A DNA stretch of 64,000 bases from assembly GCA_018819405.1 (NCBI GenBank), contig JAHJQF010000001.1:371277-435276 (forward strand), in the 5' to 3' direction. Numbering within the stretch: position 1 is the first letter of the stretch; each line of letters starts with the position of its first letter. Source of the DNA: Patescibacteria group bacterium (GTDB lineage: Bacteria > Patescibacteriota > Patescibacteriia > UBA1558 > GWA2-36-10). This document shows, one piece after another, positions 8,020 to 64,000 of this stretch. Position numbers and translations under genes: made by a program. The notes under the pieces are model-generated. The model was not told the origin of the DNA. It worked only from the letters and a program-made list of their open reading frames with translations, and searched no databases.

Positions 8020-8022
8020 AAT

Positions 8023-9272: not shown

Positions 9273-9749
9273 ATGTTTAAAAAATATCAAGGAGGATTTT
9301 CAATAATAGAAGTTATCATGGTTTTGGGTTTGGTTGGTTTGGTAGTTGGTTTTGGAGCATCTGGTTATCAGGTTTGGCAAAAAAATATTCATCTCAATAA
9401 TGTCAGGGATGAAATAAAAAGTAGTCTATTTAGGGCACAACAGTTGGCTACAGCTGCCGCCAAGAGCAATCCTTGGGGAGTCCATTTGGAAGTTGATAGC
9501 TATACAATATTTAAAGGAAACTTTTATAACGAAGACGATCCGGATAATATGAGCTGGCAGTTGGAGGGCGTAGAAATTCTAGAACCATATAGAAGTTTTG
9601 ATGATGGGGCAGGGAGCACTACGGCGGATGTTTTATTTGGTAAGTTTGATGGTCAGACTATTAATACTGGCATAATATCTCTTTCTCCTATTGCTGATCC
9701 AGCTTTGATAAAAACTATTGAGGTGGAAGCACCAGGGCAAATAAATTGA
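9273..9749 (+). CDS. Type IV pilin-like protein (class III prepilin signal)
   Basis: N-terminus QGGFSIIEVIMVLGLVGLVV matches the prepilin peptidase motif G/FxxxE followed by a hydrophobic helix. Confidence 0.7.
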   Translation: MFKKYQGGFSIIEVIMVLGLVGLVVGFGASGYQVWQKNIHLNNVRDEIKSSLFRAQQLATAAAKSNPWGVHLEVDSYTIFKGNFYNEDDPDNMSWQLEGVEILEPYRSFDDGAGSTTADVLFGKFDGQTINTGIISLSPIADPALIKTIEVEAPGQIN

Positions 9750-11656
9750 TTATGTTTGATTATAAAAAAACAGAAGGTTTTTCTTTGATGGAATTATTGG
9801 TCGTCATATCTTTTGTCAGTGTGATGGTTTTTTTGATTTTGGGTGTCAGCAATTCAAATAATAAAGTAAAAAAATTAAATGAAGAAACAACCCAAGCTAT
9901 GTTTTATGCCTCTGAAGCTCTGGAAGCAGTCAAACTGATGGCGTGGGATGATATTAGTACTGGACAATATTCTGTAGAGTTGACTGGAGACAGTTGGACA
10001 CTATCTTCTGGTAGCCAGCTTTTGGACGGGTTTTATACTAGGCAGATTGAAGTCAGTGATGTATATAGAGCTAATATTTCTAATGGTCATAGTTATGGAG
10101 AAATAGTAAGTAGTGGAGGTTATCTTGACCCTGATACAAAAAAAGCTCAAGTGATAGTTGTTTGGGATAGTAAATCTGGCCATCAGGAAACGCAGACTCT
10201 AGAAACATATTTGCATCGTTTCAAAGCTGATCGTTGGCACCAGACAGACTGGGTAGGTGGAGATGGCCAGGAGCTGTGGAGTGATGAAACTAAGTTTTCT
10301 TTTAAAGATTCAGGTATTGATAATTCAATACCGGGTATTGTTACTTTAAAGGCCGGATTTATAGATTGGAGCTATGCCAATACTACCTCTACTTATGATA
10401 CACCGGGAAATTTTGATGATAATGATGTATATGAAATAAATGATATAGCCTATTTGGTGACAGAAAATAATAGTTATGGCAGTGAATTTTATATTTTAGA
10501 TGTCAGTGATATTTCTAGTCCCACTTTGATTTCATCTATGGATATTGGCGCAGCAGTAAAGTCAGTTTTTGTGCAAGATAATTATGCTTATATTGCTACT
10601 GATTCCAACTATCGTGAATTCCAAGTAATAGATGTGTCTAACCCAAGTAGCCCATTTATTGCAGATTATTATGATATGAGCGGAAATAGTAATGCTCTGG
10701 ATGTCATGGTAGATGAAAGCAAAGCCTATGTTGTCCAGGGAGATTATCTATACTCTTTTGACATTACTGATCCCACTGATATTCGATATCTTGATAGAAT
10801 AAGCGTAGATGATCAGGCTAGAGAATTATTTTTATCAGAAAGCTATGTTTATATAGCAACTGAAGATGACAATAAGGAGCTTCAAATAATGGATGTGACT
10901 AATCCAGCTAATTTGTCAGCTGTTGGTCAATATGACTTGCCAGGTTCTTTGAAAGGAACGGACGTAAATGTCAGGGGTAGCAGAGCTTTTATTTCCACTC
11001 AAAACAATGGTTCTGGGGCGGAGTTTTTTGTAATTGATGTGACTAATCCAGCTAACCCCAGTCTTTTGGGAAGTTACGCCGTTGATGAAACCATACATTC
11101 ATTTGCTATAGTCGGTCCATATGCTTTGGTGGGCACAAACTTTTTAGATCAAGAATTAGTGGTCTTAGATATCAGCTTTCCCGAAACTATAAATGAAATT
11201 TCCGGTTTTGATTTGAATGGCTATGTTTTGGGTATGAGTGCCAATTGTTCTGTCATATACGCGGCAACATCTGGAAATACTGGTGAATTTTTTATTATAT
11301 CTACCGATGTATTAGACTGTGAGTATGCAGATTATGGTACTATGGATTCTTCCACTTTTGATACTGGTAGCAACCAAGTAACCTACAATTGGATTGCCTG
11401 GACAGGCACTGAACCAAGTGGTACTGATATTCGTTTTCAGTTGGCTACTTCAGACAATGAAGCAGGCCCATGGAATTTTATCGGACCAGACGGTAGTAGC
11501 TCAAGTTATTATACAAATTCTATTCAAGAATACATAAATTATAGTGCCCATCAGGATGATAGATATATCAGATATAGATTATTTTTGGATAGTGATTCGG
11601 AGTGGCAAGTGCCTGTGGTAGAGGAGGTATTTATTAGTTATTCTACTTATCCATGA
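9746..11656 (+). CDS. Large pilin-like protein with LVIVD-repeat beta-propeller domain (putative pilus tip/adhesin subunit)
   Basis: Prepilin N-terminus EGFSLMELLVVISF. At least 5 tandem LVIVD-type repeats (YAYIATDSNYREFQVIDVSNPSSP, AYVVQGDYLYSFDITDPTDI, VYIATEDDNKELQIMDVTNPANL, AFISTQNNGSGAEFFVIDVTNPANPSL, ...). Confidence 0.65.
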   Translation: MIMFDYKKTEGFSLMELLVVISFVSVMVFLILGVSNSNNKVKKLNEETTQAMFYASEALEAVKLMAWDDISTGQYSVELTGDSWTLSSGSQLLDGFYTRQIEVSDVYRANISNGHSYGEIVSSGGYLDPDTKKAQVIVVWDSKSGHQETQTLETYLHRFKADRWHQTDWVGGDGQELWSDETKFSFKDSGIDNSIPGIVTLKAGFIDWSYANTTSTYDTPGNFDDNDVYEINDIAYLVTENNSYGSEFYILDVSDISSPTLISSMDIGAAVKSVFVQDNYAYIATDSNYREFQVIDVSNPSSPFIADYYDMSGNSNALDVMVDESKAYVVQGDYLYSFDITDPTDIRYLDRISVDDQARELFLSESYVYIATEDDNKELQIMDVTNPANLSAVGQYDLPGSLKGTDVNVRGSRAFISTQNNGSGAEFFVIDVTNPANPSLLGSYAVDETIHSFAIVGPYALVGTNFLDQELVVLDISFPETINEISGFDLNGYVLGMSANCSVIYAATSGNTGEFFIISTDVLDCEYADYGTMDSSTFDTGSNQVTYNWIAWTGTEPSGTDIRFQLATSDNEAGPWNFIGPDGSSSSYYTNSIQEYINYSAHQDDRYIRYRLFLDSDSEWQVPVVEEVFISYSTYP

Positions 11657-18661: not shown

Positions 18662-19465
18662 CTAAAGTCTTTTGAGGTAATTTTTTGCTGCTACTTTTGT
18701 TTCAAAATGCAGAGCTTTTTTTATATGGGTACTTTCAGCACCTTCAGATTTTAATCGGTGAGCCAAAGTGTTTCTTAGTATTTGGGGGTTGATAATTACT
18801 GGCGGATCAATACCTATGGCATATTTAGAAATCAGCCTTTCAATTGAGCGGACACTTAAATGCTCATTTTTACTTTTATTTGATCTATCAAAATTTATAA
18901 ATAAATATTGATTGTTATCTAGCCTTTGGTTTATGTATTTATCAAGATGAAACCAGGTTATAGGTTTTATAAGAATATGTTTTTTGGGATTGATAATAAT
19001 TTCTTTTTTTATTTGATCTATTTGATCAAGGCGCAACTGGCATAATTGTCCGACTTTTAATCCGCTGTAATATAAAATCTCTAATATTGCTTTATCACGC
19101 AGGGCTATCAATCCTTTTTTTGTCAGAGGTTTATCTAAAAATACCTGAAGTTGTTCATTATTTAATATTTTGATTGGCGCATCTTGATCAGAGAGAAGAT
19201 CAAATTGAAATCTTTTATTTAAAAATTTAAGATAGTTATTTACAATTTTTAGGCGTAGATTGACAGTATTTACTCTTTGATATTTTCTAGTTAAATATAT
19301 AAAATATAATTTAAGGTTTTTTTCGGTGATTTTTTCTTCCCCAAGCCAAACTAGGAATTTTTCCAAATTCCAAAGATAGCTTTTTATAGTACTAGGGGCT
19401 AAGGCGAGAGATTTTAAGTATTTTTTGTATTCATTTACCCCGTTAGAAATTTTAGTAGTCGACAT
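18662..19465 (-). CDS. Tyrosine site-specific recombinase (XerC/XerD / phage integrase family)
   Basis: N-terminal SAM-like core-binding region and C-terminal catalytic segment with R...HRL...Y (LRNTLAHRL...KNYLKRL). Confidence 0.75.
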   Translation of the reverse strand: MSTTKISNGVNEYKKYLKSLALAPSTIKSYLWNLEKFLVWLGEEKITEKNLKLYFIYLTRKYQRVNTVNLRLKIVNNYLKFLNKRFQFDLLSDQDAPIKILNNEQLQVFLDKPLTKKGLIALRDKAILEILYYSGLKVGQLCQLRLDQIDQIKKEIIINPKKHILIKPITWFHLDKYINQRLDNNQYLFINFDRSNKSKNEHLSVRSIERLISKYAIGIDPPVIINPQILRNTLAHRLKSEGAESTHIKKALHFETKVAAKNYLKRL

Positions 19466-38602: not shown

Positions 38603-39712
38603 ATGGAATTAGAAATCAAAAAATTAAATAAGCTTTTGGGGCAAGCAAATAATATCTTGATCAGCGGACCAAAAGATTCAAATTTGGATGTGTTAGGCGC
38701 GGCTTATGCCTGGCATATTTTTTTATCATCCAATAAAAAGAAAGTAGATATTGCTTTTGATGGTAAGATAGCTAAGTATAATTTTTTTCCAGAAAATATA
38801 AATATAGATAATAGTCTGGGGGAATTAAATAAATTTAAGATTATTTTGGATGTTTCCAAGACTCAAGTCAAGCAACTTAGCTATGATGTCAGGGGAGATA
38901 AGTTGGAAATTGATATAGTGCCACAAGACGGTTTATTCTCAGCTCAAGATGTTAGTACGGCTCGGGGGAATTATAAATATGATTTGGTTATTACCTTGGG
39001 GGCGGATAGTCTAGATGTTTTGGGTAATATATTTTCAGAAAACAGGGATTTATTTCACAGTCGTCCTATAGTCAATATAGATAATTCTGTTTTAAATGAA
39101 AATTATGGGGAGTTGGATATAGTAGAAGCTAGCGCCACTTCAGTATCTGAAATATCCTATAATATTTTAAAAAAATATTTAGATAAAGAAATGTCAACTT
39201 ATCTTTTGGCTGGCATGATATTTGCCACGTCCAGTTTTCAGTCGCCAAAAGTGACACCTTATACTTTAGAAATTGCCAGTAATCTGATAATAAAAGGGGC
39301 TCAACGAGAAAAAATAATAGACACTTTATATCGTACTAAAGATATAAGCACTCTCAAGAGTTGGGGTAAAGTGCTTTCTAGGATAAAAAAAACGGGGCCA
39401 CTTATTAGCTCATTTTTGCGTCACGAAGAAGCTGAATATTTACCAGAGAGCTTTGAAGAAATGATAAAAGATTTGATACTGTCTACGCCAGATGCTCAGG
39501 TAGCAATTATATTTTATCAGCTGGAGCTGCAGCGTACCGAAGTCTGGGTCTATGCCAGTAATAATATAAATGCTAGTGACTTGGTCAAAGATATCCAAGG
39601 TAAAGGTAATCGTCGCAGCGCTAAATTGGAAATAGATAAAGATATAGAGGCTGCCCAGGAATTTTTGTTGGATAAGATACAAAAGAAATTGGATATTATA
39701 AATAGTGCCTAG
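38603..39712 (+). CDS. DHH-family-like protein with degenerate catalytic motif (NIDNS in place of NIDHH), probably non-catalytic paralog
   Basis: Overall DHH/DHHA1 architecture (ILISGPKDSNLDVLGAAYA ... NIDNSVLNENYG) but the DHH His residues are substituted. Confidence 0.5.
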   Translation: MELEIKKLNKLLGQANNILISGPKDSNLDVLGAAYAWHIFLSSNKKKVDIAFDGKIAKYNFFPENINIDNSLGELNKFKIILDVSKTQVKQLSYDVRGDKLEIDIVPQDGLFSAQDVSTARGNYKYDLVITLGADSLDVLGNIFSENRDLFHSRPIVNIDNSVLNENYGELDIVEASATSVSEISYNILKKYLDKEMSTYLLAGMIFATSSFQSPKVTPYTLEIASNLIIKGAQREKIIDTLYRTKDISTLKSWGKVLSRIKKTGPLISSFLRHEEAEYLPESFEEMIKDLILSTPDAQVAIIFYQLELQRTEVWVYASNNINASDLVKDIQGKGNRRSAKLEIDKDIEAAQEFLLDKIQKKLDIINSA

Positions 39713-39763
39713 ACTTCACAAAAAGTCCGTCTTACTCTATAATATTTATGTTTATTTAATTTA

Positions 39764-39840
39764 TCGTCCTGTAGCTCAGCTGGTTAGAGCACCACTCTTA
39801 TAAAGTGGGGGTCCTGGGTTCAAGTCCCAGCAGGACGACC
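39764..39840 (+). tRNA. tRNA-Ile with anticodon UAU (reads AUA)
   Basis: Manual fold: acceptor cgtcctg/caggacg with one G-U, D-arm gctc/gagc, anticodon stem ccact/agtgg with loop cttataa (anticodon TAT), T-arm ctggg-ttcaagt-cccag, discriminator A, encoded CCA. Confidence 0.8.
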
Positions 39841-39898
39841 AGATTGACATTTTATCCACTATTTGCTATATTTCTATCGTTAAATTTATTATCAAGAT

Positions 39899-39988
39899 AT
39901 GGGAACAAAACTAAAGAATAAAAGATTATCTGTAAAAAGACGTCGCAGAAAGAAACTCAAGAGACGCAATAGATTTAAAAATAAATAA
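39899..39988 (+). CDS. 29-aa highly basic peptide (MGTKLKNKRLSVKRRRRKKLKRRNRFKNK), possibly a bS22-like small ribosomal protein
   Basis: Unlisted short ORF; composition and MG(T/S)...KRRR..KKL.RR.R pattern resemble small ribosomal protein bS22. No SD. Confidence 0.25.
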   Translation: MGTKLKNKRLSVKRRRRKKLKRRNRFKNK

Positions 39989-40167
39989 TTTTTACCTGTC
40001 TACGGTAGGTAGGTATTTATTCAATAAAGAACCGTTTTTGCCTAGCGCGATTATTGTGGCATTAGCGGTTTTTTGTTAGGTTTAAAAGATAAAAAATCGC
40101 GCCCCCTTTTTCCAACATAGGATTAAGGGGGCGTTAGTATAGGCTGACCGCCTATTGTGTTGTAGAC

Positions 40168-40461
40168 TCAGGCCACCTTGGCCAGAGTAGGGTAGGAGGA
40201 GATCCTAGCCAAACCAGGGTCTTCAAACTGGACAGCAAAGTAGGAATCGGACATCCCGACCAGCCGGCCTTGTCTGATACCAGAAAGCCAGTAGATCCAG
40301 CGTATATCACCACGCTTGACGACCACGAAAGTGCGGCGTCCTTTGTGGATGATGGCCTTGCGTCCGGTTAGGGAATTGGTCAAGGTCAGGTCTCGGTGTA
40401 GGATAGCCGTTACGCGAGGCAGTTCCGGTAGGAGTTCTTGGAGTTTTTCCAGAGTAGACAT
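40168..40461 (-). CDS. Small basic protein, candidate RelE/ParE-like toxin partner
   Basis: 97 aa from internal ATG 40461 (MSTLEKLQ...). Segment RRTFVVVKRGDIRWIYWLSGIRQ resembles RelE/ParE-fold toxins (weak). Confidence 0.35.
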   Translation of the reverse strand: MSTLEKLQELLPELPRVTAILHRDLTLTNSLTGRKAIIHKGRRTFVVVKRGDIRWIYWLSGIRQGRLVGMSDSYFAVQFEDPGLARISSYPTLAKVA

Positions 40462-40465
40462 GAGT

Positions 40466-40708
40466 TTAGCTCCCTTCAGGCAGGCGAAGCAGCCGATTGA
40501 AGATGCTGGGGTCTTCGACAAAGCTTCGAATTTCACCAATCTGGTCAAGGTCGTAGTTGAAGTAAAGGGTGTAGGAGCCAGCTGGCAAAATGATGATTTC
40601 TTGGACTTGTCCGGTTATAGGGTCGATGACTTCAACACTGGTGTTTGTGTCCAGGACAATGGTCTTGGGATCAGCGAGGATTGACTGAAATTTTTCGGCT
40701 TGAGTCAT
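40466..40708 (-). CDS. Small acidic protein, candidate antitoxin of a two-gene toxin-antitoxin-like module (GC-rich island)
   Basis: 80 aa, pI acidic. Stop separated by 4 nt from the downstream basic ORF; SD aagggag for the downstream gene lies in its 3' end. Confidence 0.35.
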   Translation of the reverse strand: MTQAEKFQSILADPKTIVLDTNTSVEVIDPITGQVQEIIILPAGSYTLYFNYDLDQIGEIRSFVEDPSIFNRLLRLPEGS

Positions 40709-40978
40709 GACATTTTCCTCCTAGTGAAAAGAACAGATTTGAGCATAAAAAAATATTCCTTTTCAGGAATATTTAATTCACTCTATATAAATATTTTTTT
40801 CTTTGACAAATTCAGAACTGAGAAAAAATAAAAGCCCTTTATCGGGGGTCATTTTCTGATGATGGGCATATCTTTTTTTCATCTTTATAATTATAGCAAA
40901 AATAAATATTTGGTCAACTAGTCTTAAAATAAAGGGAAAATTGAAGCCCCCACCAAGATGTCTGTCTATAGTGGGGGC

Positions 40979-41176
40979 TCAAGCTTGGCCGGGGCTTAGT
41001 GATCCGTTTTGGATCAATTGGAGGTGCTGTCTCAGTGCTTGTTCAACTTCTTGGGCCGTTTCTTTCCGGCAGTAGAGGCGAGCTACATCAATCGCCGCAT
41101 GTAGGGTTTTTTCATCGGGTAGGGAGTAAAAGTTTTGGATAGCCATGGCCATGAGTTTGGCGCCGTCTTCTTGCAT
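40979..41176 (-). CDS. 65-aa hypothetical protein with canonical SD and sigma70-like promoter
   Basis: SD ggaggtga 4 nt upstream of ATG. Promoter TTGACA (41266..41261) -17 nt- TATAAA (41243..41238) on minus strand. Confidence 0.4.
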   Translation of the reverse strand: MQEDGAKLMAMAIQNFYSLPDEKTLHAAIDVARLYCRKETAQEVEQALRQHLQLIQNGSLSPGQA

Positions 41177-41306
41177 GGTTTCACCTCCTTGAGGTTTCGA
41201 GTTAAGGACAGGGCGGAGAAAAATAGAGTAATATTTATTTATAATATTAATATTGGTATTTGTCAAGAAAAGGAAGGCCGCCCGACTAGAAGCCGGGCGG
41301 CTATGT

Positions 41307-41657
41307 TTAGGAAGCATTGACAGCCTCTTCGGCATCATTGTCTTCCGATACGTCCTCGGTAGGTGTGAGTTGTGGCAGCAACTCCAGGACCTTGAGAGGC
41401 ACGATGGAAACCCTGAGACCAGGGTAGTCTTTTTGGGTGGAGGCCCAAATCCAGCTGGTTATAGATTGGCCGACCATGCGACCTTGGTCAAGCTCTTTCT
41501 TGATGACCAAGAGGTCATGAGGAAAGATAGTAGGATCTCCTGGATTGGCTATCCTGACCAACTTGTAAGTACCAGCGGCGTAGACTATTGGTTTCCCCTG
41601 GATAAGAGGGCTTGGGAACAGGGTATCCTCCTCTGTGGAAAAGTCTATGAGGTTCAT
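41307..41657 (-). CDS. 116-aa hypothetical protein (strand choice uncertain in GC-rich DNA)
   Basis: Co-oriented with all other island genes and protein-like composition. The overlapping plus-strand ORF 41253..41687 is the alternative. Confidence 0.3.
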   Translation of the reverse strand: MNLIDFSTEEDTLFPSPLIQGKPIVYAAGTYKLVRIANPGDPTIFPHDLLVIKKELDQGRMVGQSITSWIWASTQKDYPGLRVSIVPLKVLELLPQLTPTEDVSEDNDAEEAVNAS

Positions 41658-41965
41658 CGGGTGATGAGCAACGAGGGTGAAGATTAAGTGCTTTGCGACG
41701 TTGCCTCCGTGCTAGAGAAGTGAGTGAGGTGCGAGTGGCGGGGGGATATATTTTTATTATACACAAAAAATAGGATAAGGGAAATTTTTATAATTTTTAT
41801 AAAAAGAAAGCCGCCCTGGAACGTTTGGCGTTCCAGGGCGGAGGGAAAAACAAGGTCAGCTAGCTTGTACGTATCTAGGACTTGTTTTCGAATTGGCTGG
41901 GGTTGAAATCAACAACCACTATCAGTCGTTGGGGGAGATGGCAGATTTAGTATAATAGTTCCTTT

Positions 41966-42592
41966 CTAGACAGGGTAATTACCTCTGAGTCGGAGCCACT
42001 CTTCACGACCTTTGGGGCGTATAGCTTCGGAGCCGGCCAGACACAAGGGACAGTCCTGAGGTTGCCAGGTGTCAATCTGGGGAGCGATCAAGCTGATGAT
42101 CTTACGACCATCCAGATCAGATAATCCCGATCGGTTGACCAGCGCTAGAATGGTATGGCTCACAATCCCGCCTGCTTCGCTTATACCGGCGATGCTCTGG
42201 CGGGTGGTTTTGCCAGTAGTCATGACATCTTCAACCATTAGTACCCTGGTGCCAGGCTTCAGTGGAAAGCGTTTGAGCAACATCTGGTTGTCAACCTTTT
42301 CGGTGAAGCCGGCTTCCTTCTCCATACTCAGAGCCAGTTGGTAGGCCAGAGTGACGCCGCCCATGGCTGAACCAATAACCATATCATATGGACAATTGTG
42401 TAGCCAGTTGGCCTGATTGGCCAGGTGCCAGCAAGCCTTTTCCAGTAGAGCAGGGTTGCGGATAATTAGGCTACAGTTGACAAAGCCGTTGGAGTGCAGT
42501 CCACTGGTCAAAAGAGCGTGGGGACGCTGAGGATTGTTGTCGTGGAGCCACAGGGCACCGGTTTGTTTGAAGACTTCCAGCCACATGAACAT
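41966..42592 (-). CDS. Orotate phosphoribosyltransferase-like PRTase (PyrE family), in GC-rich island
   Basis: PRPP loop VLMVEDVMTTGKTTRQSIAGISEAGG and DMVIGSAMGGVTLAYQLA segment are collinear with PyrE. Confidence 0.6.
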   Translation of the reverse strand: MFMWLEVFKQTGALWLHDNNPQRPHALLTSGLHSNGFVNCSLIIRNPALLEKACWHLANQANWLHNCPYDMVIGSAMGGVTLAYQLALSMEKEAGFTEKVDNQMLLKRFPLKPGTRVLMVEDVMTTGKTTRQSIAGISEAGGIVSHTILALVNRSGLSDLDGRKIISLIAPQIDTWQPQDCPLCLAGSEAIRPKGREEWLRLRGNYPV

Positions 42593-42679
42593 GATTTAGC
42601 CTTTCTGTTGGGAGTGAACTATTTTTGACAAGCTAGCGCCTTGTCTGTTTTTCGGACTAATTTTTCTATATTTAATGAT

Positions 42680-44577: not shown

Positions 44578-44667
44578 TGGCGGTGGGGGTGGGATTTGAA
44601 CCCACGAGCCGCTTTCACGACTACCGGTTTTCGAGACCAGCGCTTTCAACCACTCAGCCACCCCACC
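44578..44667 (-). tRNA. tRNA-Ser (anticodon CGA), long variable arm
   Basis: rc sequence ggtggggtggctgagtggttgaaagcgctggtctcgaaaaccggtagtcgtgaaagcggctcgtgggttcaaatcccaccccaccgcca; anticodon loop ctCGAaa. Confidence 0.85.
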
Positions 44668-44679
44668 ATTTTATATAAA

Positions 44680-45708
44680 TTATCCAATCTTTTTATTATC
44701 CATATCTTTTAGTGTATTTAAAAATCTCTTGCTATATTTTGGCAAAGTGATAGAGACTCTCATCATATCTTCTCCTAAAAACATCGCTACTTTAAAATTT
44801 TGTTTGGCCACAATGTTTTTTAATTTGTTCAATATTTTTTTGTTTACTTTGATCAATATAAAGTTGGTGCAACTTTTATAGGCTATAAAATTTTTTAGTT
44901 TGTTTATTTCTTCTGTCAGATTGTCACGATCTTTAATTATTTTTTTGGCAATATTTCCGTAATAATTAGTTGAGTCTAAGGCAGCGATAGCAATATTTTC
45001 CAGAATTTGGCTGAAATTTAAATAATATGCTTGATAATTTATAATTTTTAAAGCCTGTTTTCCAGCCAGAGCATAGCCAATGCGCAGTCCTGCTAAACCA
45101 TAAAATTTGGAAAAAGTTCTGACCAGCATTAGGTGAGGGTATTTTTTGGTAAGGTTAATATATTTTTTATCTTGATAGTTTGGGTCAAAACCAAAGTATG
45201 CTTCGTCCAGTATTACTAGAGTATTTTTTGATACAGTATTTAAAACTTTTTTTAAATCAGCAAAATTTAGTACATTGCCGGTTGGGTTGTTTGGTGAAGT
45301 GAGTAAGACTATACTTGGTTTATATTTTTTATATTTTTTTATCAAATCATCTATATCAAAATAAAAACTATTTTTATCAGACACCATTTTGGATTCATAC
45401 ATTTTTATTTTTAGGTGTTTGAGATAGCTAGAAAAATAAGCAAAGTGGTATTGGTTGACTAAGATGGAATCTTTTTTTCTATCAAGTGATCTAAAAAGTC
45501 CTCTAAAGAAATCTTCCAAGCCATAAAATATCAAAATTTGCTGGCTAGGAAAATTGAATTTTTTGGATATTTTTTCAGCCAAAGGAGAATGATAATAGCC
45601 ACCTATATATCGGGATATTTTTTGTTGGGGGAAATTTTTGATAGCTTTTTTTACTTTGTCTGATGGTGGGTAAAAAAGCTCATTGCGATTTATGATGTAT
45701 TGTTTCAT
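44680..45708 (-). CDS. Class I/II PLP-dependent aminotransferase (HisC/CobD-like)
   Basis: SPNNPTGNVL, ILDEAYFGF, FSKFYGLAGLRIGY (Schiff-base Lys). Start trimmed to the Met at 45708 because the longer ORF overlaps the tRNA-operon 3' hairpin. Confidence 0.6.
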   Translation of the reverse strand: MKQYIINRNELFYPPSDKVKKAIKNFPQQKISRYIGGYYHSPLAEKISKKFNFPSQQILIFYGLEDFFRGLFRSLDRKKDSILVNQYHFAYFSSYLKHLKIKMYESKMVSDKNSFYFDIDDLIKKYKKYKPSIVLLTSPNNPTGNVLNFADLKKVLNTVSKNTLVILDEAYFGFDPNYQDKKYINLTKKYPHLMLVRTFSKFYGLAGLRIGYALAGKQALKIINYQAYYLNFSQILENIAIAALDSTNYYGNIAKKIIKDRDNLTEEINKLKNFIAYKSCTNFILIKVNKKILNKLKNIVAKQNFKVAMFLGEDMMRVSITLPKYSKRFLNTLKDMDNKKIG

Positions 45709-45735
45709 GGTTTTATAATAATTGCCTTTCGACTC

Positions 45736-45845
45736 GCTTCGCTCGCTCAAGACACTCGATTCTACAAATCTAGAATGGTCGTAGGTGTTTTTAAACACCG
45801 AAAAACACGAGTGAGGCTTTTGCGAAGCAAATGGCGAATCGAGTG
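45736..45845 (-). terminator. Large imperfect inverted repeat immediately 3' of the tRNA operon (probable operon terminator/processing hairpin)
   Basis: Arms cactcgattc (45753-62) / gaatcgagtg (45836-45) plus gcttcgc/gcgaagc extension; inner palindrome ggtgtttttaaacacc (45784-99). Confidence 0.4.
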
Positions 45846-45920
45846 GTGGACCGTGCCGGAATTGAACCGGCGGCCTCTACAATGCGAATGTAGCGCTCTA
45901 GCCATCTGAGCTAACGGCCC
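45844..45920 (-). tRNA. tRNA-Ala (anticodon CGC), G3-U70 identity pair present
   Basis: rc gggccgttagctcagatggctagagcgctacattCGCattgtagaggccgccggttcaattccggcacggtccacca. Confidence 0.85.
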
Positions 45921-45944
45921 GCGTTGCTAGGAAGTGGTTATACG

Positions 45945-46021
45945 TGGTCGGAGTGGTGGGACTTGAACCCACGACCTCATCGTCCCGAACGATGCGCGCT
46001 AGCCAACTGCGCCACACCCCG
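45945..46021 (-). tRNA. tRNA-Pro (anticodon CGG)
   Basis: rc cggggtgtggcgcagttggctagcgcgcatcgttCGGgacgatgaggtcgtgggttcaagtcccaccactccgacca. Confidence 0.85.
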
Positions 46022-46123
46022 TGAACTACTCGTCGTTTGACGACTCGAGTTCACGGCAGGCCTCTTAATTATCTAAGTAGATGGGGCTTGCCATAAACCG
46101 GAGCGCCAAGCGCGACTGGTTTA

Positions 46124-46210
46124 TGGTACCGAAGAGAGGACTTGAACCTCCACGTCCTATTGGACACATGGCTCTGAACCATGCGCGTCTACCAATTCCG
46201 CCACTTCGGC
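46124..46210 (-). tRNA. tRNA-Leu (anticodon CAG), long variable arm
   Basis: rc gccgaagtggcggaattggtagacgcgcatggttCAGagccatgtgtccaataggacgtggaggttcaagtcctctcttcggtacca. Confidence 0.85.
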
Positions 46211-49947: not shown

Positions 49948-51528
49948 ATGTTTGAAACTTTTCAAAATCATAATCAAGCAAGTCAAAGTCCAGATAATAT
50001 AAAAAGGTCCCCTGACAATCCTATACCTAACATGCCTAGGTCCGAGCCGTCTACGCCAGTCAAAGGCAAAAATAAATTATGGATAATGATAGTGGCTATT
50101 ATTTTGTTAGTAATTTTGGGACTTGGCGCTTGGTGGTATTATGCTTATGGTCAGGCCATAATGTTAGTCAAAGATGTGTCTTGGAGTTGGGGTAGTACTG
50201 GTATGGAAAGTTATCAGCAGAATATTGATATGTCTTTTAACATAAAAAATCAAAATGAAGCCAACAAAAATATATCTATGATGAGTTTTTTTGGTAGTAA
50301 TTTTGATTTGACTATTAATTCATCGCAAGCTTATCTTGGTTCTGATTCGGAAGGGAGCATTTTTTTGTCAGTTTCAGACAAGAGCAAAATAAATTATCAA
50401 ATAGATTTGGAATCAAAAAAAATAAGGGAAAATCTTTATTTTAAGACAAATTGGCAAGATTTAGAAACAGCCTTGATGGGTTTTGTAGATTTTAGTAGTT
50501 TGCCCGATGATGCTTGGTTTGAGATTCCTATTGATTTTGTCAAAACTCTTAGTGGCAAAATACCTGAAGATACAGAAATAGATGATCAAAAAATAGCCGA
50601 GATAAATCAAAAAGTAGATGAGTATTTGCAGAAAATAAAAAAATCCAAAATATTTCAAGTCAAAGATACTCACCAGACAGTTGAGACTCCACAAGGAAAT
50701 TTAAAAAAGATAGAATTGATTTTAAAAGCTAACAAATTATCCGACTTGATTCTTTTATCTATAGATATGCAATTAGATGTGAATACATCGCTTTATTTAA
50801 ATACTGACAAAGAAGTTGTCAAAGCCGAGATGATAAATAGTTTTGAAAAATTCAAAACAGAAAAGCCAGATGAGTGGGCAAACATCAAAGGATATTTGGA
50901 CCATATAAAGATCTTTGTTTTGATAGACGATAAAACAAAAAATATAGGTGGGTTTGAGATTTATGTAGATAATTTAGGTATCAAATCAAAAAGTTATAAT
51001 ACTTTGCTAAATGGGCAACTGAAATATTTGATGTATTATGTTGAGCCTTATCCGGTCATTACGCCACAAAATATAAAAACTCTTGATGAGTTTTTGAACG
51101 GTTTTGGTGGCAGCACAGGTGTGTTGCCAGATACAGATGATACGGATGGCGATGGATTAACTGATTATGAAGAATCAGTATTGGGCACAGATCCAAATAA
51201 TCCAGACACAGATGGTGATGGTTATAGTGATGGACAGGAAATGGAAAATGGCTACAATCCTTTGGGCGATGGTCAGATATTTGAATATGGTGATCAATTG
51301 TCAGATTTAGCCATAAGACAGTGTCAGGATGGTGGTGGTGTCTTTCAAAATAGAGAAGAAGAAATATCATGTAGCTTTATTGATAGTCAAACAGATTGTC
51401 AGGCTGTAGCAGGTTGTTCATGGAATGAGCCTGGTTATTGTCAGGAGGTAGAATCATGGTGTGTTTGTGAGGATGGCAAAAAATTATATCTTTCTCCACA
51501 GGGTATTTTTGAAGAAACATGTAATTAA
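49948..51528 (+). CDS. Membrane-anchored protein with thrombospondin-type-3-like Ca-binding Asp repeats and Cys-rich C-terminus
   Basis: DTDDTDGDGLTDYEESVLGTDPNNPDTDGDGYSDGQE; C-terminal multi-Cys module; N-terminal TM. Confidence 0.5.
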   Translation: MFETFQNHNQASQSPDNIKRSPDNPIPNMPRSEPSTPVKGKNKLWIMIVAIILLVILGLGAWWYYAYGQAIMLVKDVSWSWGSTGMESYQQNIDMSFNIKNQNEANKNISMMSFFGSNFDLTINSSQAYLGSDSEGSIFLSVSDKSKINYQIDLESKKIRENLYFKTNWQDLETALMGFVDFSSLPDDAWFEIPIDFVKTLSGKIPEDTEIDDQKIAEINQKVDEYLQKIKKSKIFQVKDTHQTVETPQGNLKKIELILKANKLSDLILLSIDMQLDVNTSLYLNTDKEVVKAEMINSFEKFKTEKPDEWANIKGYLDHIKIFVLIDDKTKNIGGFEIYVDNLGIKSKSYNTLLNGQLKYLMYYVEPYPVITPQNIKTLDEFLNGFGGSTGVLPDTDDTDGDGLTDYEESVLGTDPNNPDTDGDGYSDGQEMENGYNPLGDGQIFEYGDQLSDLAIRQCQDGGGVFQNREEEISCSFIDSQTDCQAVAGCSWNEPGYCQEVESWCVCEDGKKLYLSPQGIFEETCN

Positions 51529-56808: not shown

Positions 56809-57411
56809 GTGAAAGAAATAAAATTAGATAAAACTAATAGAATACAGGTTTTACAAGAGGCACTCCATGTTTTGAATGAGGGTGGGGTGATTATATATCC
56901 GACGGAGACATCTTATGGCTTAGGTTGTGATTTTTACAACAAAAAAGCCATGGCCAAAATTTATAAGATAAAAAAAAGAGACCAAGGTAAGCCATTGCCT
57001 GTGATCGTGCCAGATATTATAACAGCTTCTTATCTAGTAAATTTTGATGACAATTCACGGCGCTTGGCTTTGTCTCATTGGCCAGGGCCATTGACTTTGG
57101 TATTACCATTTAAATATTGTAAGTGGCAAGGACACTGTGATGATTTTTTGGCTTTGAGAGTATCTAGTCATCCTTTTGCCAGTGAGCTAGCCAGAAATTT
57201 TGGAAAACCGATTGTGTCCACTTCGGCCAATTTTCAGGGAGCCGGTAATATTTATAGCGGTAAAAAGATAAAAGCTCTTTTTAAAGGTCAAGCTCAAGCA
57301 GATCTTTTTATAAATGCCGGTGATTTGCCAGAGACTCCGCCTTCAACAATTATAAAATTCAATGGCAAACCTGAGATCTTGCGTAAGGGAAGTTTGAAGA
57401 TAAATTTTTAA
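56809..57411 (+). CDS. tsaC: L-threonylcarbamoyladenylate synthase (TsaC/YrdC)
   Basis: YPTETSYGLGCD, KPLPVIV, WPGPLTLVLP, SANFQGAG motifs. Confidence 0.8.
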   Translation: MKEIKLDKTNRIQVLQEALHVLNEGGVIIYPTETSYGLGCDFYNKKAMAKIYKIKKRDQGKPLPVIVPDIITASYLVNFDDNSRRLALSHWPGPLTLVLPFKYCKWQGHCDDFLALRVSSHPFASELARNFGKPIVSTSANFQGAGNIYSGKKIKALFKGQAQADLFINAGDLPETPPSTIIKFNGKPEILRKGSLKINF

Positions 57412-59527: not shown

Positions 59528-60319
59528 ATGGACGAAAATTTTGAACTAAATCAATTACAAAAAAATCAGGATTTAAACAATCAAGTTTTGCCAGAAAATG
59601 TCCAGGCGAATTTGGAAAATCCTACCAATAAAAAAAGTTTGCGCGGTAAATTTTGGTTATTTTTTGTGTTTAGTATTTTTTTATTATTGATAAGTGGATC
59701 GCAGATTTATAAAAATTTGATTGAGCCAGTCAAATATGACACTCCTGATTGGCTGGATAATCAATTGAGTCCTGATGAAGAAGCGACTAGGACTATAGCC
59801 GAGCTAAAGGAAAATGATACAGATGGGGATGGTCTGACAGATTATGAAGAAAAGTATCAATATTATACTAGTATGTTTTTGGAAGATACTGATAGTGACG
59901 GCTTTACTGACTCTGAAGAAGTAGCTTTGGGGAATGATCCGCTTTGTCCACATGGGCAGTCCTGTAATCTTTTGAGACTCATCACACCCAATACTAAATT
60001 GGCCGATATAATTGAGCAGGTCAATGTTGACCCAGATATAACAGTCCAAGAGGCGGCTGTGTCTGAATTTAGGAATTTTCTCAAAGAAAATGGTATGCCG
60101 CAGGAAGACCTAGATGCCCTGACAGATGAGGATCTTCTAAATATTTTTAGAATATTTGATCAGAGTAATATTTTACCCGAAAATGCTTTGTCCAATGATC
60201 CTACTCCAGATGAAGTCAGACAGTTTTTATTGACCCAACCAGGAGCCGATCCAGCAGAAATAAACGCTTTGAGTGATGAGGAATTATTGGGTATAGCCCA
60301 AGAATTATTAGCAAGATAA
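59528..60319 (+). CDS. Membrane-anchored protein with TSP3-like Asp repeats (paralogous in style to 49948..51528)
   Basis: TDGDGLTDYEEKYQYYTSMFLEDTDSDGFTDSEE; N-terminal TM helix. Confidence 0.5.
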   Translation: MDENFELNQLQKNQDLNNQVLPENVQANLENPTNKKSLRGKFWLFFVFSIFLLLISGSQIYKNLIEPVKYDTPDWLDNQLSPDEEATRTIAELKENDTDGDGLTDYEEKYQYYTSMFLEDTDSDGFTDSEEVALGNDPLCPHGQSCNLLRLITPNTKLADIIEQVNVDPDITVQEAAVSEFRNFLKENGMPQEDLDALTDEDLLNIFRIFDQSNILPENALSNDPTPDEVRQFLLTQPGADPAEINALSDEELLGIAQELLAR

Positions 60320-60353
60320 TTATTATATTTTTGATAAGAATAAAATATAAGAT

Positions 60354-63300
60354 ATGGCAAGTTATAAAAAAATAATTTTTTCCCTAGTTCTAGTTTTTGT
60401 TACTTTTACCGGTCTATCTTTGCCGCGTCCAGCGGATGCTTTTATTGTATCGGTGGCCCATGATGTCACCGGAAGTCTAAAATGGATTTGGGATAAAGTA
60501 GAGAAAGTTTATGATACTGTCCAGGGCATTGTGGGTGCTGAATTATCAAATAAGACGGTGGGAATGTTTATGGATAGTCTGGCCTATGATGTAGCCACTG
60601 AACTAGCAACTGGTGCAGCCGGAGGTAAACCATTGTTTCGGACGACCTCTATAAAACAACATTTACAAAATGCTCAAGATAAGGCTTTTGGTGAATTTTT
60701 GGGTGAGCTTACTACCAAAGGTTTTGATGAATTGGGTATAAATCTTTGTGATCCTTCTATTGATGTCAAATTGACGCTTACCTTAGCTTTGCTTGATGAG
60801 CAAAAACCGCCAAAACCAAAGTGTGATTGGCGTAATGTCCAGAGAGAATGGAAAAATTTTGAAAAAGAAGTGCAATCAGATATTGTAAAGTTTCATCTTG
60901 ATCCGAAAAGATCAGGGACTGACAGCACCAAAGAATTTTTTCAGGGTTTGATGGATCCTGAAAATAGTGACTTGGGCGCCTTAATAAAATTGGAGACGAC
61001 TGTCAACAATAAAAAAATAGAAGCTAAAGAGGTGGAAGAACTATCTGCTTCTGAATGTCAGGGATTCATAGACAAAGCTACAACTGTTATAGAGGCTGTG
61101 AAAACTCACTGTAGTGTAGCTATGAATATGTCGGAAGAACAATGGGATTCGGCTGTTGAAAACTCAGCTAAAGCCATAGCAGCTAGAAAAGAGGCAGCTA
61201 CCAATAGGAAATTGTCAGATATTTTAAAAGATGCCGGTAGTCGTTTTGTTGATACTTTTACTTCCAAACTGATGAAAGAATGGATAAAAGACGGTATGTG
61301 GTCTTTATTTGGTGGTAAGAATAATAATGCAATAGTAGGAGATGATCTATTAGCTAGATTAAGGGGTGGTTATGATTTTTTGCAGCCTAGGGGTCAGGAT
61401 TTATTTAAAGACCTTAAAAAAATAAGGATAGAAAAAATAGAATCTTTTGATTATCTCAATGAATTTGCAATTTGTCCAAGTCAGTTTAAAAAACCAGACA
61501 ATTGTGTGATGAGTCCAGCTTTTTTACAAGCGGTAAATTCTCAGATGACTTTGAAACAAGCTATAGAAGATGGTGTAATTGACGGGCAGACTCCTTTGAT
61601 TGGGCCAAATGATCCACTCAATCATAGCACTGAAAAATGTTATCGTGATGGTTTGTGTTATGGTAATTTAGTCAAGCTCAGAAAAGCAAATATTGTACCA
61701 GTTGGATGGGAATTGGCAGCTATTCGTGGCCCAGTCAGTTTACAGCAGGCTATGGATTGTTTTGAAGAATCATTAGATTGTCGTTTTCCTATTTCAGATA
61801 AGTTTGCCGTAGATGGTAATCAACACAATCCTTTTTATCATTTGATAGATCCGGATTGGGTTCTCAAAGCACCTAGTGTCTTATGCGATGCCTATGTCAA
61901 TTCATCTGTTTTGGAATCTTCAGACAGTAGTAATCGTCAACAATATTGTGCTGATGCCAAAATTTGTTTGCGTGAAGATGATGATGGTAATTGTCTGGAT
62001 GGTCAATACGGATATTGTACTAGGACAGAAAATATTTGGCGTTTTGAAGGCGACAAATGTCCAAGTGGTGATATTTACGCCGGTTGTTTGACTTTTAAAA
62101 ATGAAGATTTGGGAGAGTTTTCTTATGTTGAAGATAGTCTTGATTATTGTACTGCTGATCAAGCGGGTTGTCGCAGGTATTCCCAAGAAAAAGACTTTGA
62201 AGGCAATTGGATATTAGATGATATCAGATATGATGATAATGATTTATTTTTGAATAAACAGGCAAATATCTGTAGCTCGGATCAGGCTGGTTGTGATCAA
62301 TATATATTAATGGCTCCTGATCTTGGTGTTAATCTAGTTCCCAATAGTGGTTTTGGTGACATCAATGATGACGGAACTCCTGATGGCTGGTCTTCAGTAG
62401 GTTTTGATTATAATGGCGATAGAATTGCCAATGGTTATGCCTATGGTGGTGGATTGGGAGTTGATTTGATGCAAAGAGTAGAGCTTTTGCCAAATACCAT
62501 GTACCAAATTTCAGTGGACATGGAGCAATATACTCCTGAAAGTACAGACCAAGGCAGAATCACTATGCATCTTTGCGATGCCTCTGGTACTTGTGGTGAT
62601 ACTAGTATTGGCGGGGCTATAGAGGAGCTTACTACTTGTGACATCGGATATGATGGACACCCAAACAATATAGACCTTCTGTCAGTACCGTCTCAAGGAG
62701 CACAAAGAGCCAAGTGTACATTTATGACCAATGAAAATACTAAAGGTGGTCAGATTAATATTTCATCTGAAAATCCTGTGGCTAGTTCTGTTATTTGGTT
62801 TGATAATCTAAAATTAGAAATTGTCAGCTCTTCAAACAGTTCATCTGTTTATACACCTTATGGACAAGGCGGTTATGTTTATATGGATAGCGGACGTTTT
62901 ATGTGTCTTGAAAAAGAAGTTGGTTGTCAGGGCTATACTCCTATAAATGGAGACCCAATGATACCAGCAGTTATTAATTCTGGTGATCTTTGTCCAAATG
63001 AATGTGTTGGCTATGATACTTTTTCTGAACAGCCTGATTTGTTTGATATTATGGAGGGTGATACGGATGTGAGGTATTTTAATTTCATACCAGATACAGC
63101 TAATTCATGTCCTGAGACTGCAGTTGGTTGTGAAGAGTTCACCAACCTTGATGTATTAGCCGAGGGCGGTGAGGGTAGAGAATATTATACATTCCTTCGC
63201 CAATGTGTGCCTTCGGAGTTTGGGGCGGCTTATTATACTTGGGAGGGTAGTGACGTGGCCGGTTATCAAATCAAAACTTGGTATATCTTAGAAAGTAATA

Positions 63301-64000
63301 TCAGCGATGCGCCTTGCACTAACATAGATCCTCATGGCACTGATTGTCGTGACAATGTCAGTATTGCTACTTGTGATGTCTCAGAGTTGGATACAAACCC
63401 AAATTGTCGCCAGTTCTTTGATCAAGACGGAGACTCTCATATGCGTTTGCAGGATAGGGTAGTATTTGCCAGCGATAACTGTCATGACTATAGACGTACT
63501 TTGACCGGTACAGAATATAGCGGTTTGCCGTCAGAAAGTATTTCTTGTACGGCAGCCAATAATAATTGCCGATCATATTATGGTAATAATGCCAATAATA
63601 TACGTATGTTATTTATTGATAATTTTGAAGGTGGTACTTATTCCCCGTGGGGAGATGGAGATCCGGGTATTATTGATTTGTCTTCAGAATCATTAAATGA
63701 CGGTGGTCATTCTTTGAAGCTTGCCACAGGGCATAGCCATGGCAGAAATATGGTTGACGAAGTTATAAAAAATAACAAAGAATATCAGGTCTCCTGGTGG
63801 ATGAAAAGCAGTGTGTCATTGAGTGATTTTAATATTCGCCTATTTTTGGAGGATGCCAATAATAATACATTTTTAGAAAATTTGAATGACGCAGAAGATA
63901 CTGATTTGTTTAATATTGAAGCTGGTAACTGGCATTATTATACTATTTCCAAATATCTGGATATATCTAGTTTGGACATGGATAATATTGATAGCCAGGC
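60354..64000 (+). CDS. Giant secreted cysteine-rich surface protein, 5' portion (at least 1215 codons; runs off the window end); absent from the supplied ORF track
   Basis: I read every line from 60354 to 64000 in frame and found no stop; the first in-frame upstream stop is 60348-50. Signal peptide MASYKKIIFSLVLVFVTFTGLSLPRPADA. Repeated CxxxxGC modules (CPSGDIYAGC, CTADQAGCRRY, CSSDQAGCDQY, CLEKEVGCQGY, CPETAVGCEEF). Two CBM_4_9-like segments (PNSGFGDINDDGTPDGWS... and IDNFEGGTYSPWGDG...GGHSLKLATG...YQVSWWMKSS). Confidence 0.8.
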   Translation, partial: MASYKKIIFSLVLVFVTFTGLSLPRPADAFIVSVAHDVTGSLKWIWDKVEKVYDTVQGIVGAELSNKTVGMFMDSLAYDVATELATGAAGGKPLFRTTSIKQHLQNAQDKAFGEFLGELTTKGFDELGINLCDPSIDVKLTLTLALLDEQKPPKPKCDWRNVQREWKNFEKEVQSDIVKFHLDPKRSGTDSTKEFFQGLMDPENSDLGALIKLETTVNNKKIEAKEVEELSASECQGFIDKATTVIEAVKTHCSVAMNMSEEQWDSAVENSAKAIAARKEAATNRKLSDILKDAGSRFVDTFTSKLMKEWIKDGMWSLFGGKNNNAIVGDDLLARLRGGYDFLQPRGQDLFKDLKKIRIEKIESFDYLNEFAICPSQFKKPDNCVMSPAFLQAVNSQMTLKQAIEDGVIDGQTPLIGPNDPLNHSTEKCYRDGLCYGNLVKLRKANIVPVGWELAAIRGPVSLQQAMDCFEESLDCRFPISDKFAVDGNQHNPFYHLIDPDWVLKAPSVLCDAYVNSSVLESSDSSNRQQYCADAKICLREDDDGNCLDGQYGYCTRTENIWRFEGDKCPSGDIYAGCLTFKNEDLGEFSYVEDSLDYCTADQAGCRRYSQEKDFEGNWILDDIRYDDNDLFLNKQANICSSDQAGCDQYILMAPDLGVNLVPNSGFGDINDDGTPDGWSSVGFDYNGDRIANGYAYGGGLGVDLMQRVELLPNTMYQISVDMEQYTPESTDQGRITMHLCDASGTCGDTSIGGAIEELTTCDIGYDGHPNNIDLLSVPSQGAQRAKCTFMTNENTKGGQINISSENPVASSVIWFDNLKLEIVSSSNSSSVYTPYGQGGYVYMDSGRFMCLEKEVGCQGYTPINGDPMIPAVINSGDLCPNECVGYDTFSEQPDLFDIMEGDTDVRYFNFIPDTANSCPETAVGCEEFTNLDVLAEGGEGREYYTFLRQCVPSEFGAAYYTWEGSDVAGYQIKTWYILESNISDAPCTNIDPHGTDCRDNVSIATCDVSELDTNPNCRQFFDQDGDSHMRLQDRVVFASDNCHDYRRTLTGTEYSGLPSESISCTAANNNCRSYYGNNANNIRMLFIDNFEGGTYSPWGDGDPGIIDLSSESLNDGGHSLKLATGHSHGRNMVDEVIKNNKEYQVSWWMKSSVSLSDFNIRLFLEDANNNTFLENLNDAEDTDLFNIEAGNWHYYTISKYLDISSLDMDNIDSQ

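Follow-up and report, generated by a model that had tools for sequence, protein, structure and literature searches.

A syntenic tRNA-Ile(UAU) gene as the probable reader of AUA codons in a Patescibacteria group bacterium

How does a small, AT-rich bacterium read the isoleucine codon AUA when its chromosome encodes a tRNA-Ile whose anticodon is already UAU? In the canonical bacterial system, AUA is read by tRNA-Ile2(CAU), the C34 of which is converted to lysidine by TilS. The DNA considered here, a stretch of 64,000 nucleotides referred to as the window, is part of contig JAHJQF010000001.1 (assembly GCA_018819405.1) of a Patescibacteria group bacterium, a small metagenome-assembled genome (MAG) of the Candidate Phyla Radiation (CPR) with NCBI proteins MBU12028xx and locus tags KKH39_. 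An earlier note on the letters of the window had proposed a tRNA-Ile with a UAU anticodon and, from it, an alternative AUA-decoding strategy with possible loss of tilS. The reading favored by the analysis, with a probability of about 0.65, is that of a native, expressed CPR tRNA-Ile(UAU) that would read AUA and would have been inherited from a deep CPR ancestor.

The gene and its decoding parts are located as follows.

39765..39841, plus strand: tRNA-Ile(UAU) gene of 77 nucleotides (ARAGORN; Rfam tRNA model; homologous copies in relatives)
39797..39803, plus strand: anticodon loop CTTATAA (sequence read; Rfam structural alignment)
39799-39801, plus strand: anticodon TAT, positions 34-36, flanked by U33, A37, and A38
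39839-39841, plus strand: encoded CCA at the 3′ end of the gene

ARAGORN reports five tRNAs in the window, one of which, located at 39765-39841 (plus strand), is called as tRNA-Ile and has the anticodon (tat); the gene proposed earlier is therefore the right one, with its position (39764-39840) off by a single base. The Rfam tRNA model RF00005 matches positions 39765-39838 over its full length (model positions 1-71 of 71) with 71.8 bits against a gathering score of 29 (E = 1e-13). In this alignment, CUUAUAA forms a seven-nucleotide loop closed by the five-base-pair stem CCACU/AGUGG, which bears out the cloverleaf first folded by hand. Because the loop is fixed at 39797-39803, with TAT at 39799-39801, a frameshifted reading of it is impossible. 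The acceptor stem is CGUCCUG/CAGGACG, with an unusual C1-G72 pair, and the discriminator is A73. The minimum free energy fold is by itself unremarkable (z = -1.9), as is usual for tRNAs, and the reality of the gene is thus established by the covariance-model score and by conservation. A genuine tRNA-Ile gene with a UAU anticodon is confirmed, far beyond chance.

Conservation was assessed on a gap-free alignment of 117 in-register copies (that of the window and those of 116 other loci, designated by L numbers), scored against the cloverleaf. Stem cells are paired in 98.7% of cases, compared with 71.7% in shuffles and ~40% with slid partners. Changes on both sides of a pair occur in 540 cells, with a covariation score of 0.685 vs 0.152, and in the stems left free by the search pattern (acceptor, anticodon, and T) they occur at every pair except 53-61. 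The family carries A73 in 117/117 copies, G3-C70 in 96/117, and C4-G69 in 91/117, matching the signature that Silva et al. 2006 (PMC1635315) described for Ile. Judged by these substitutions, the 117 UAU copies are selected, Ile-type tRNAs.

The window copy itself displays the Ile-type features A73, C4-G69, C5-G68, U12-A23, A37, and A38. Outside the anticodon, the identity set of the E. coli isoleucyl-tRNA synthetase (IleRS) comprises A73, C4-G69, U12-A23, A37/A38, and C29-G41, the last of which is an identity pair reported by Nureki et al. 1994. Pair 3-70 is U-A, whereas Met and fMet tRNAs, from which Ile tRNAs are separated by the acceptor 3-70 rule of Silva et al. 2006 (PMC1635315), typically have C-G there. 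On this comparison, most of the Ile identity elements are present.

What AUA means in this organism can be read from its proteins. The window is AT-rich (~36% GC), and in 58 mechanically chosen open reading frames (ORFs) AUA accounts for 39% of Ile codons (633 of 1603) and has a frequency of 36 per 1000 codons, which bears out the heavy ATA use stated in the earlier note. PNPase, IF-2, RbfA, ClpP, and LeuRS were aligned to their E. coli orthologues, and the E. coli residue facing each codon was tallied in locally conserved context only. AUA sites face I14/V11/L5/M1, AUU sites I25/V13/L4, AUC sites I16/V8/L4, and AUG sites M14. The AUA profile is like those of AUU and AUC and unlike that of AUG; hence, on these alignments, AUA specifies isoleucine in the source organism. 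The proposal of an alternative AUA-decoding strategy is accordingly supported, as a genomic UAU tRNA is encoded and AUA is read as Ile, and so is the view that the source genome encodes a lysidine-independent way to read AUA.

The age of the gene is indicated by its neighbors, which form a conserved module of DHH2, tRNA-Ile(UAU), and a mini-ORF.

38603..39712, plus strand: DHH2, a divergent DHH/DHHA1-like protein of 369 amino acids, on the same strand as the tRNA and 52 nucleotides before it
39715..39743, plus strand: sigma-70-type promoter-like site TTCACA-17 nucleotides-TATAAT with 11/12 consensus matches (consensus scan, pattern only)
39844-39872, plus strand: promoter-like site of the mini-ORF (pattern scan)
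39900..39989, plus strand: Lys/Arg-rich mini-ORF of 29 amino acids (57% Lys+Arg), MGTKLKNKRLSVKRRRRKKLKRRNRFKNK, directly 3′ of the tRNA
39991..40013, plus strand: terminator-like hairpin and T-rich tail (pattern scan), at the end of the conserved module

The first promoter-like site ends ~21 nucleotides before the tRNA 5′ end, and by its sequence the tRNA probably has a promoter of its own. Of the 90 listed GTDB loci that are evaluable, 23 have DHH2 directly 5′ of tRNA-Ile(UAU) and in the same orientation, at 30-64% amino acid identity. L003, L057 (Komeilibacteria RIFOXYD1_FULL_37_29), L065, and L093 hold copies that are 95-96% identical to the window tRNA and share its C1-G72 end and CCA, while the copies of L250 and L254 are identical to it. 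L003 and L057 keep the order of the window, RNaseY-ClpP-DHH1-RbfA-IF2 / DHH2-tRNA, and the IF2-RbfA-DHH1-ClpP-RNaseY-DHH2-tRNA synteny is also found in L007. The mini-ORF is near-identical and in the same position in at least 10 relatives (L057, L065, L093, L250, L251, and L254-L258).

Since choosing loci by their anticodon biases toward UAU, DHH2 was also used as an anchor that is independent of the anticodon. From 25 aligned DHH2 proteins (A1), 80 metagenome loci (L247-L326) were drawn out of 443 relatives. tRNA-Ile(UAU) is present in 64 of the 80; among the 77 loci that are evaluable, no other tRNA precedes it downstream of DHH2 in 49, and it stands behind tRNA-Val(GAC) in seven more. The common arrangement places valS divergently from DHH2, tRNA-Ile(UAU), and tRNA-Val(GAC), with DHH2 nearly always just 5′ of tRNA-Ile(UAU). 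As a synteny marker, DHH2 argues that the tRNA locus is old and vertically inherited, and by this evidence tRNA-Ile(UAU) is an old, native chromosomal gene that is not phage-derived. The locus, with either the mini-ORF or tRNA-Val(GAC) as the third member, is conserved across a large CPR subclade, to which a deep CPR ancestor would therefore have passed it on vertically.

DHH2 is a CPR protein family, with the 443 relatives residing in metagenome contigs, and is akin to NrnA-type DHH/DHHA1 phosphoesterases. The window protein matches NrnA weakly (E = 1e-5), and a Pfam search with it gave no match. Its catalytic motifs are degenerate in the clade of the window (DHH to DNS or DRS, DTDGF to xTKSF, and GGGH lost), and to judge from them DHH2 may be a non-catalytic RNA- or nucleotide-binding paralogue. 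The mini-ORF resembles very small basic ribosomal proteins such as bS22, but it matches nothing in Pfam or NCBIfam, and a bS22-like identity was not adopted for it. A linkage of the tRNA to IleRS was also considered and rejected: the large class-I synthetase beside the tRNA in many CPR loci is ValRS (LeuRS in Dormiibacterota).

How rare such genes are in bacteria was addressed by a GTDB scan with one genome per species and a pattern made up of an Ile-type D-arm, the CTTATAA loop, and GTC in the variable loop. It yielded at least 120 loci in an order that is not known, such that a fraction of CPR species is not derivable from them. Of the 120 listed, at least 80 bear CPR names that span most named CPR groups: Saccharibacteria (16), unclassified Patescibacteria (17), Peribacteria (10), and Dojkabacteria (8), as well as Parcubacteria, Paceibacteria, Magasanik-, Falkow-, Komeili-, Doudna-, Shapiro-, Peregrini-, Sung-, and Moranii-bacteria, Minisyncoccia, and SR1. 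Locus GC ranges over 26-57% among the listed CPR copies, and because some CPR groups with the trait reach 54-57%, AT-richness does not explain the UAU tRNA. The non-CPR matches listed include the known case of Bifidobacterium, Dormiibacterota, Similichlamydia, and a few Firmicutes and Bacteroidota.

The published view is one of rarity: nine species in three clades have tRNA-Ile(UAU) and lack tilS, with a few others having both systems (PMC3575796); tRNADB-CE holds bacterial tRNA-Ile(UAU) in 19 species (PMC4013482); the tRNAscan-SE 2.0 survey found it in 17 genomes (PMC8450103); and a 2026 preprint speaks of "rare cases". The rarity assumed in the earlier note agrees with this literature and does not hold for the CPR lineage, of which the UAU tRNA is typical and not a one-off oddity of the source genome. 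In the literature searched, no paper links CPR, Patescibacteria, or Saccharibacteria to lysidine or TilS, and as far as that search shows the CPR-wide pattern is undescribed.

Three further observations concern the distribution. First, 15 listed GTDB-representative MAGs titled "uncultured Gammaproteobacteria bacterium" (TPA assemblies; L006, L011, L023, L045, L046, L048, L059, L062, L069, L099, L101, L103, and L105 among them) show CPR-type features, with the order DHH2 / tRNA-Ile(UAU) / tRNA-Val / valS at 26-47% GC and, in L023, the set of C34 tRNAs found in the window; these labels are doubtful because the CPR-specific synteny is common to them and the window. Second, the Dormiibacterota loci L009 and L029 (63-65% GC) hold a tRNA-Ile(UAU) with C1-G72 and encoded CCA at 81-84% identity to the window copy. 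The large synthetase adjacent to it in L029 is confirmed as LeuRS, and L009 has a similar one. The likeness may stem from a common origin of UAU decoding that extends past CPR, or it may be convergent. Third, Ile-type UAU tRNAs are abundant in IMG/VR contigs, with at least 119 extractable copies (loci L127-L246); among the viral matches listed, 117/119 fold and 118/119 have A73.

Whether this tRNA is the only reader of AUA turns on TilS and tRNA-Ile2(CAU). No PP-loop or TilS-like protein was found in the 64-kb window, and ARAGORN finds no CAU tRNA there. Elsewhere, CAU tRNAs do cluster with the UAU tRNA, mainly in Saccharibacteria, Dojkabacteria, Shapirobacteria, and Doudnabacteria. The 34 so found (two each in 16 loci and one each in two loci) comprise 18 initiators, 12 of Met-type C3-G70, four that are ambiguous, and none that is Ile2-like; the split of Met from Ile2 follows the acceptor-stem rule of Silva et al., as identity to E. 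coli references is not discriminating. These clusters thus read as fMet, Met, and Ile(UAU), with the UAU tRNA in place of Ile2. The retention of the UAU tRNA at one locus through deep divergence argues against mere redundancy, and its retention even in GC-rich CPR argues that it is needed. On this footing, tRNA-Ile(UAU) is probably, though by no means securely, the only AUA decoder, with tRNA-Ile2(CAU) and tilS presumed to be absent from the source genome.

The rival that survives best is a redundant decoder, i.e., a genome that keeps tRNA-Ile2(CAU) and TilS and uses the UAU tRNA as a supplementary AUA reader. Such coexistence is documented in Lactobacillus casei, Cyanothece PCC 7424, and Ferrimonas balearica (PMC3575796), ~970 kb of the source genome lies outside the window in which tilS and Ile2 were sought, and AUA is so abundant that extra decoding capacity could help. 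This alternative is nevertheless unlikely, for several reasons: an Ile2-type acceptor stem occurs in 0/34 of the CAU tRNAs near UAU tRNAs; no CAU tRNA is found in the 80 DHH2-anchored metagenome loci (542 kb); no TilS is found in ~1.45 Mb of related DNA; a redundant gene should be patchy, whereas the UAU tRNA has stayed syntenic while the neighboring protein diverged to ~30% identity; and retention of the UAU tRNA extends to GC-rich CPR, in which the demand for AUA reading is lower.

Several points weigh against the reading of a sole, native AUA decoder, besides the unknown order of the GTDB loci. (i) Pair 29-41 of the window tRNA is A-U rather than C-G, which leaves one Ile identity element missing. 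(ii) C1-G72 is atypical among bacterial Ile tRNAs. (iii) The search for TilS with HMMER (E. coli TilS plus the PP-loop motif) found none in ~0.9 Mb of GTDB and 0.54 Mb of metagenome loci, which is a weak negative, as the ~1.45 Mb spans ~200 genomes of ~1 Mb each. (iv) UAU tRNAs coexist with tilS in some bacteria (PMC3575796), and the UAU tRNA by itself therefore does not imply tilS loss. The few SGGxDS matches in that DNA were rejected as TilS, one being QueC-like by motif context, which is a matter of judgement, and two being low-complexity or unrelated sequence. A comparison of E. coli TilS with the protein collection returned Enterobacteria in all of its best 120 matches, a result that is uninformative on Patescibacteria. 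The broader claim that the whole CPR, possibly with adjacent lineages such as Dormiibacterota, reads AUA by a tRNA-Ile(UAU) acquired through descent and has neither tRNA-Ile2(CAU) nor TilS is tentative and falls somewhat short of an even chance.

Recent acquisition of a foreign tRNA through a phage or an island is very improbable. It would accord with the Ile-type UAU tRNAs common in IMG/VR contigs and with a 2.6-kb segment of ~50% GC and differing Ile codon usage that begins ~150 nucleotides downstream of the tRNA. However, the best viral copy among the matches listed is 84% identical, compared with 95-100% for cellular relatives; the synteny on both sides (DHH2 5′ and the mini-ORF 3′) is common to many relatives, with the break beyond the mini-ORF; and the window contains no duplicate of the tRNA 3′ end and no integrase nearby. 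Synteny effectively refutes the foreign-tRNA explanation. An island integrated at the tRNA was rejected likewise, there being no direct repeat of the tRNA 3′ end and no integrase in the vicinity, and the GC-rich segment begins after the conserved mini-ORF and is thus not a classical tRNA-targeted island.

The segment itself (40000-42650) lies between the tRNA module and mgtE and has 43-53% GC, compared with ~30-35% on its flanks. It holds an orotate-phosphoribosyltransferase-like gene at 41966-42592 (TIGR01367, E = 1e-34, below cutoff); its three small ORFs match no family, and ATA codons are almost avoided in the segment. Synteny with 16/17 relatives (tblastx) stops just before it, at ~39,831-40,055, and fragments of it are common only to L254. 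No integrase or repeats were found at the segment, which is probably a strain-variable, horizontally acquired insertion.

Least probable of all, and close to negligible, is a different identity of the tRNA or a reassignment of AUA, e.g., by charging with Met or another amino acid: AUA is read as Met in many mitochondria, altered codes exist within CPR (UGA in SR1 and Gracilibacteria), and the C1-G72 acceptor end is atypical for tRNA-Ile, but AUA sites align to Ile/Val/Leu just like those of AUU and AUC and face Met at 1/37, A73, C4-G69, C5-G68, and U12-A23 are Ile-type, and the family pair 3-70 is mostly G-C and not the Met-type C-G.

If tRNA-Ile(UAU) is indeed the AUA reader, U34-A pairing would decode the abundant AUA codons as isoleucine, and no conversion of cytidine to lysidine by TilS would then be needed. 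Formation of t6A37 (N6-threonylcarbamoyladenosine at position 37) would be expected, and TsaC/Sua5 of the t6A37 pathway is encoded in the window at 56809-57411 (plus strand); this pathway is relevant to all ANN-reading tRNAs. Charging would fall to the IleRS of the genome itself, which must accept U34. E. coli IleRS accepts U34 poorly, and a single Trp-to-Arg change in it suffices; the Mycoplasma mobile enzyme uses Arg865 for U34, and its tRNA-Ile(UAU) carries t6A37; Bifidobacterium and Neorickettsia use eukaryote-type IleRS (PMC3575796). Misreading of AUG through U-G wobble would have to be limited, whether by competition from tRNA-Met, by ribosome discrimination as in M. mobile, or by modification of U34.

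The other tRNAs of the window bear on this last point. All four (44578-46210, minus strand) have C34, namely Ser(CGA), Ala(CGC), Pro(CGG), and Leu(CAG), which read UCG, GCG, CCG, and CUG, and they are clustered in a ~1-Mb genome of 36% GC. Beside its tRNA-Ile(UAU), the relative L023 carries all four of these and also Gly(CCC), a GGG reader. With dedicated C34 tRNAs, the genome does not rely on U34 tRNAs for G-ending codons. U34 tRNAs in these organisms may read G poorly, and restricted U34 wobble would fit.

Among known systems, the closest parallel is M. mobile (PMC3575796), likewise with an elongator tRNA, a genomic UAU, A37, A73, abundant AUA, and a small AT-rich genome, and likewise requiring an IleRS that accepts U34 and protection against AUG misreading. 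Experiments on M. mobile have demonstrated that tilS and Ile2(CAU) are lost, as well as the unmodified U34, IleRS Arg865, and ribosome discrimination, whereas the window system is known from sequence. M. mobile is also an isolated case within Mollicutes, and its UAU tRNA derives from tRNA-Ile(GAU) according to Silva et al., while the trait of the window spans a whole radiation. Bifidobacterium and Neorickettsia, which lack tilS, offer a likeness in the vertical replacement of the lysidine system at the level of a lineage; they differ in having GC-rich genomes, a known IleRS type, and tRNAs 70-78% identical to the window copy. The pattern used for the GTDB scan also picked up copies from Bifidobacterium (L061, L080, and L117).

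The canonical tRNA-Ile2(CAU)/TilS system performs the same AUA-to-Ile job, and the window tRNA has its C4-G69, C5-G68, and A73. Position 34 is T in the gene, not the C of Ile2, and TilS therefore has no cytidine to modify. L. casei, Cyanothece PCC 7424, and F. balearica, which hold tilS, also have a UAU tRNA-Ile gene; theirs is sporadic, while that of the window is syntenic across a deep clade. U34 also reads AUA in archaeal tRNA-Ile3(UAU), known from Nanoarchaeum equitans as well as Korarchaeum cryptofilum (PMC8450103), and in eukaryotic tRNA-Ile(UAU). Nanoarchaeum is likewise an ultra-small episymbiont, and no homology is implied with these systems, which belong to other domains and have differing IleRS and modification machinery. 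Phage tRNA-Ile(UAU) genes share the anticodon and an Ile-type body with the window copy, which, unlike them, is chromosomal and syntenic; the closest viral copy listed is 84% identical. The eukaryotic tRNA carries pseudouridine at positions 34 and 36. In the defining features compared, the window gene conforms to a bacterial tRNA-Ile(UAU) and would work like the M. mobile or Bifidobacterium type.

The remainder of the window is that of a bacterial chromosome. Housekeeping neighbors include ClpP, an NrnA-like DHH protein, RbfA, IF-2, RNase Y, PNPase, S15, LeuRS, KsgA, and TsaC, and type IV pilus genes are among the window genes too. Other features stand apart from the tRNA locus.

4068-4658, plus strand: free-standing YbaK/ProX-type aminoacyl-tRNA editing domain protein
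6289-9264: type IV pilus ATPase and platform pair
9746-11656, 49948-51528, and 59528-60319: TSP3-repeat and LVIVD-repeat/beta-propeller proteins
18662-19465, minus strand: tyrosine recombinase (Phage_integrase family), ~20 kb away from the tRNA, with which it has no connection, and adjoining two phosphoribosyltransferase-domain genes and a pyrimidine-dimer glycosylase
60353-64000, plus strand: giant ORF of at least 1216 amino acids with a signal-peptide-like start, running past the window end

The giant ORF, the repeat proteins, and the pilus pair together resemble a gene set for the cell surface and for attachment, in keeping with the episymbiont lifestyle of CPR.

Taken singly, the gene is ordinary, being a member of a known, supposedly rare tRNA class that standard annotation would call. 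It is the lineage pattern that matters: tRNA-Ile(UAU) occurs across most named CPR groups and is fixed in synteny in a large subclade, where no CAU replacement is seen. The 371 metagenomic tDNA-Ile(TAT) sequences mentioned without attribution in 2013 may find an explanation in this pattern, at least in part. If tilS is missing, a radiation that makes up much of bacterial diversity would be able to do without an enzyme that is deemed essential and confined to bacteria and that has been considered as a drug target, and the anticodon recognition of IleRS must have shifted lineage-wide. The cultivable Saccharibacteria carry this UAU tRNA type (16 listed loci), which makes the matter experimentally testable. 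Were the pattern true of CPR as a whole, the radiation would be by far the largest bacterial clade without the lysidine system, which is supposed to be near-universal and essential; CPR IleRS, and possibly the ribosome, would have lineage-wide adaptations for U34 recognition and AUG avoidance; and the finding would be relevant to the suggestion by Taniguchi et al. that AUA was ancestrally decoded by UAU.

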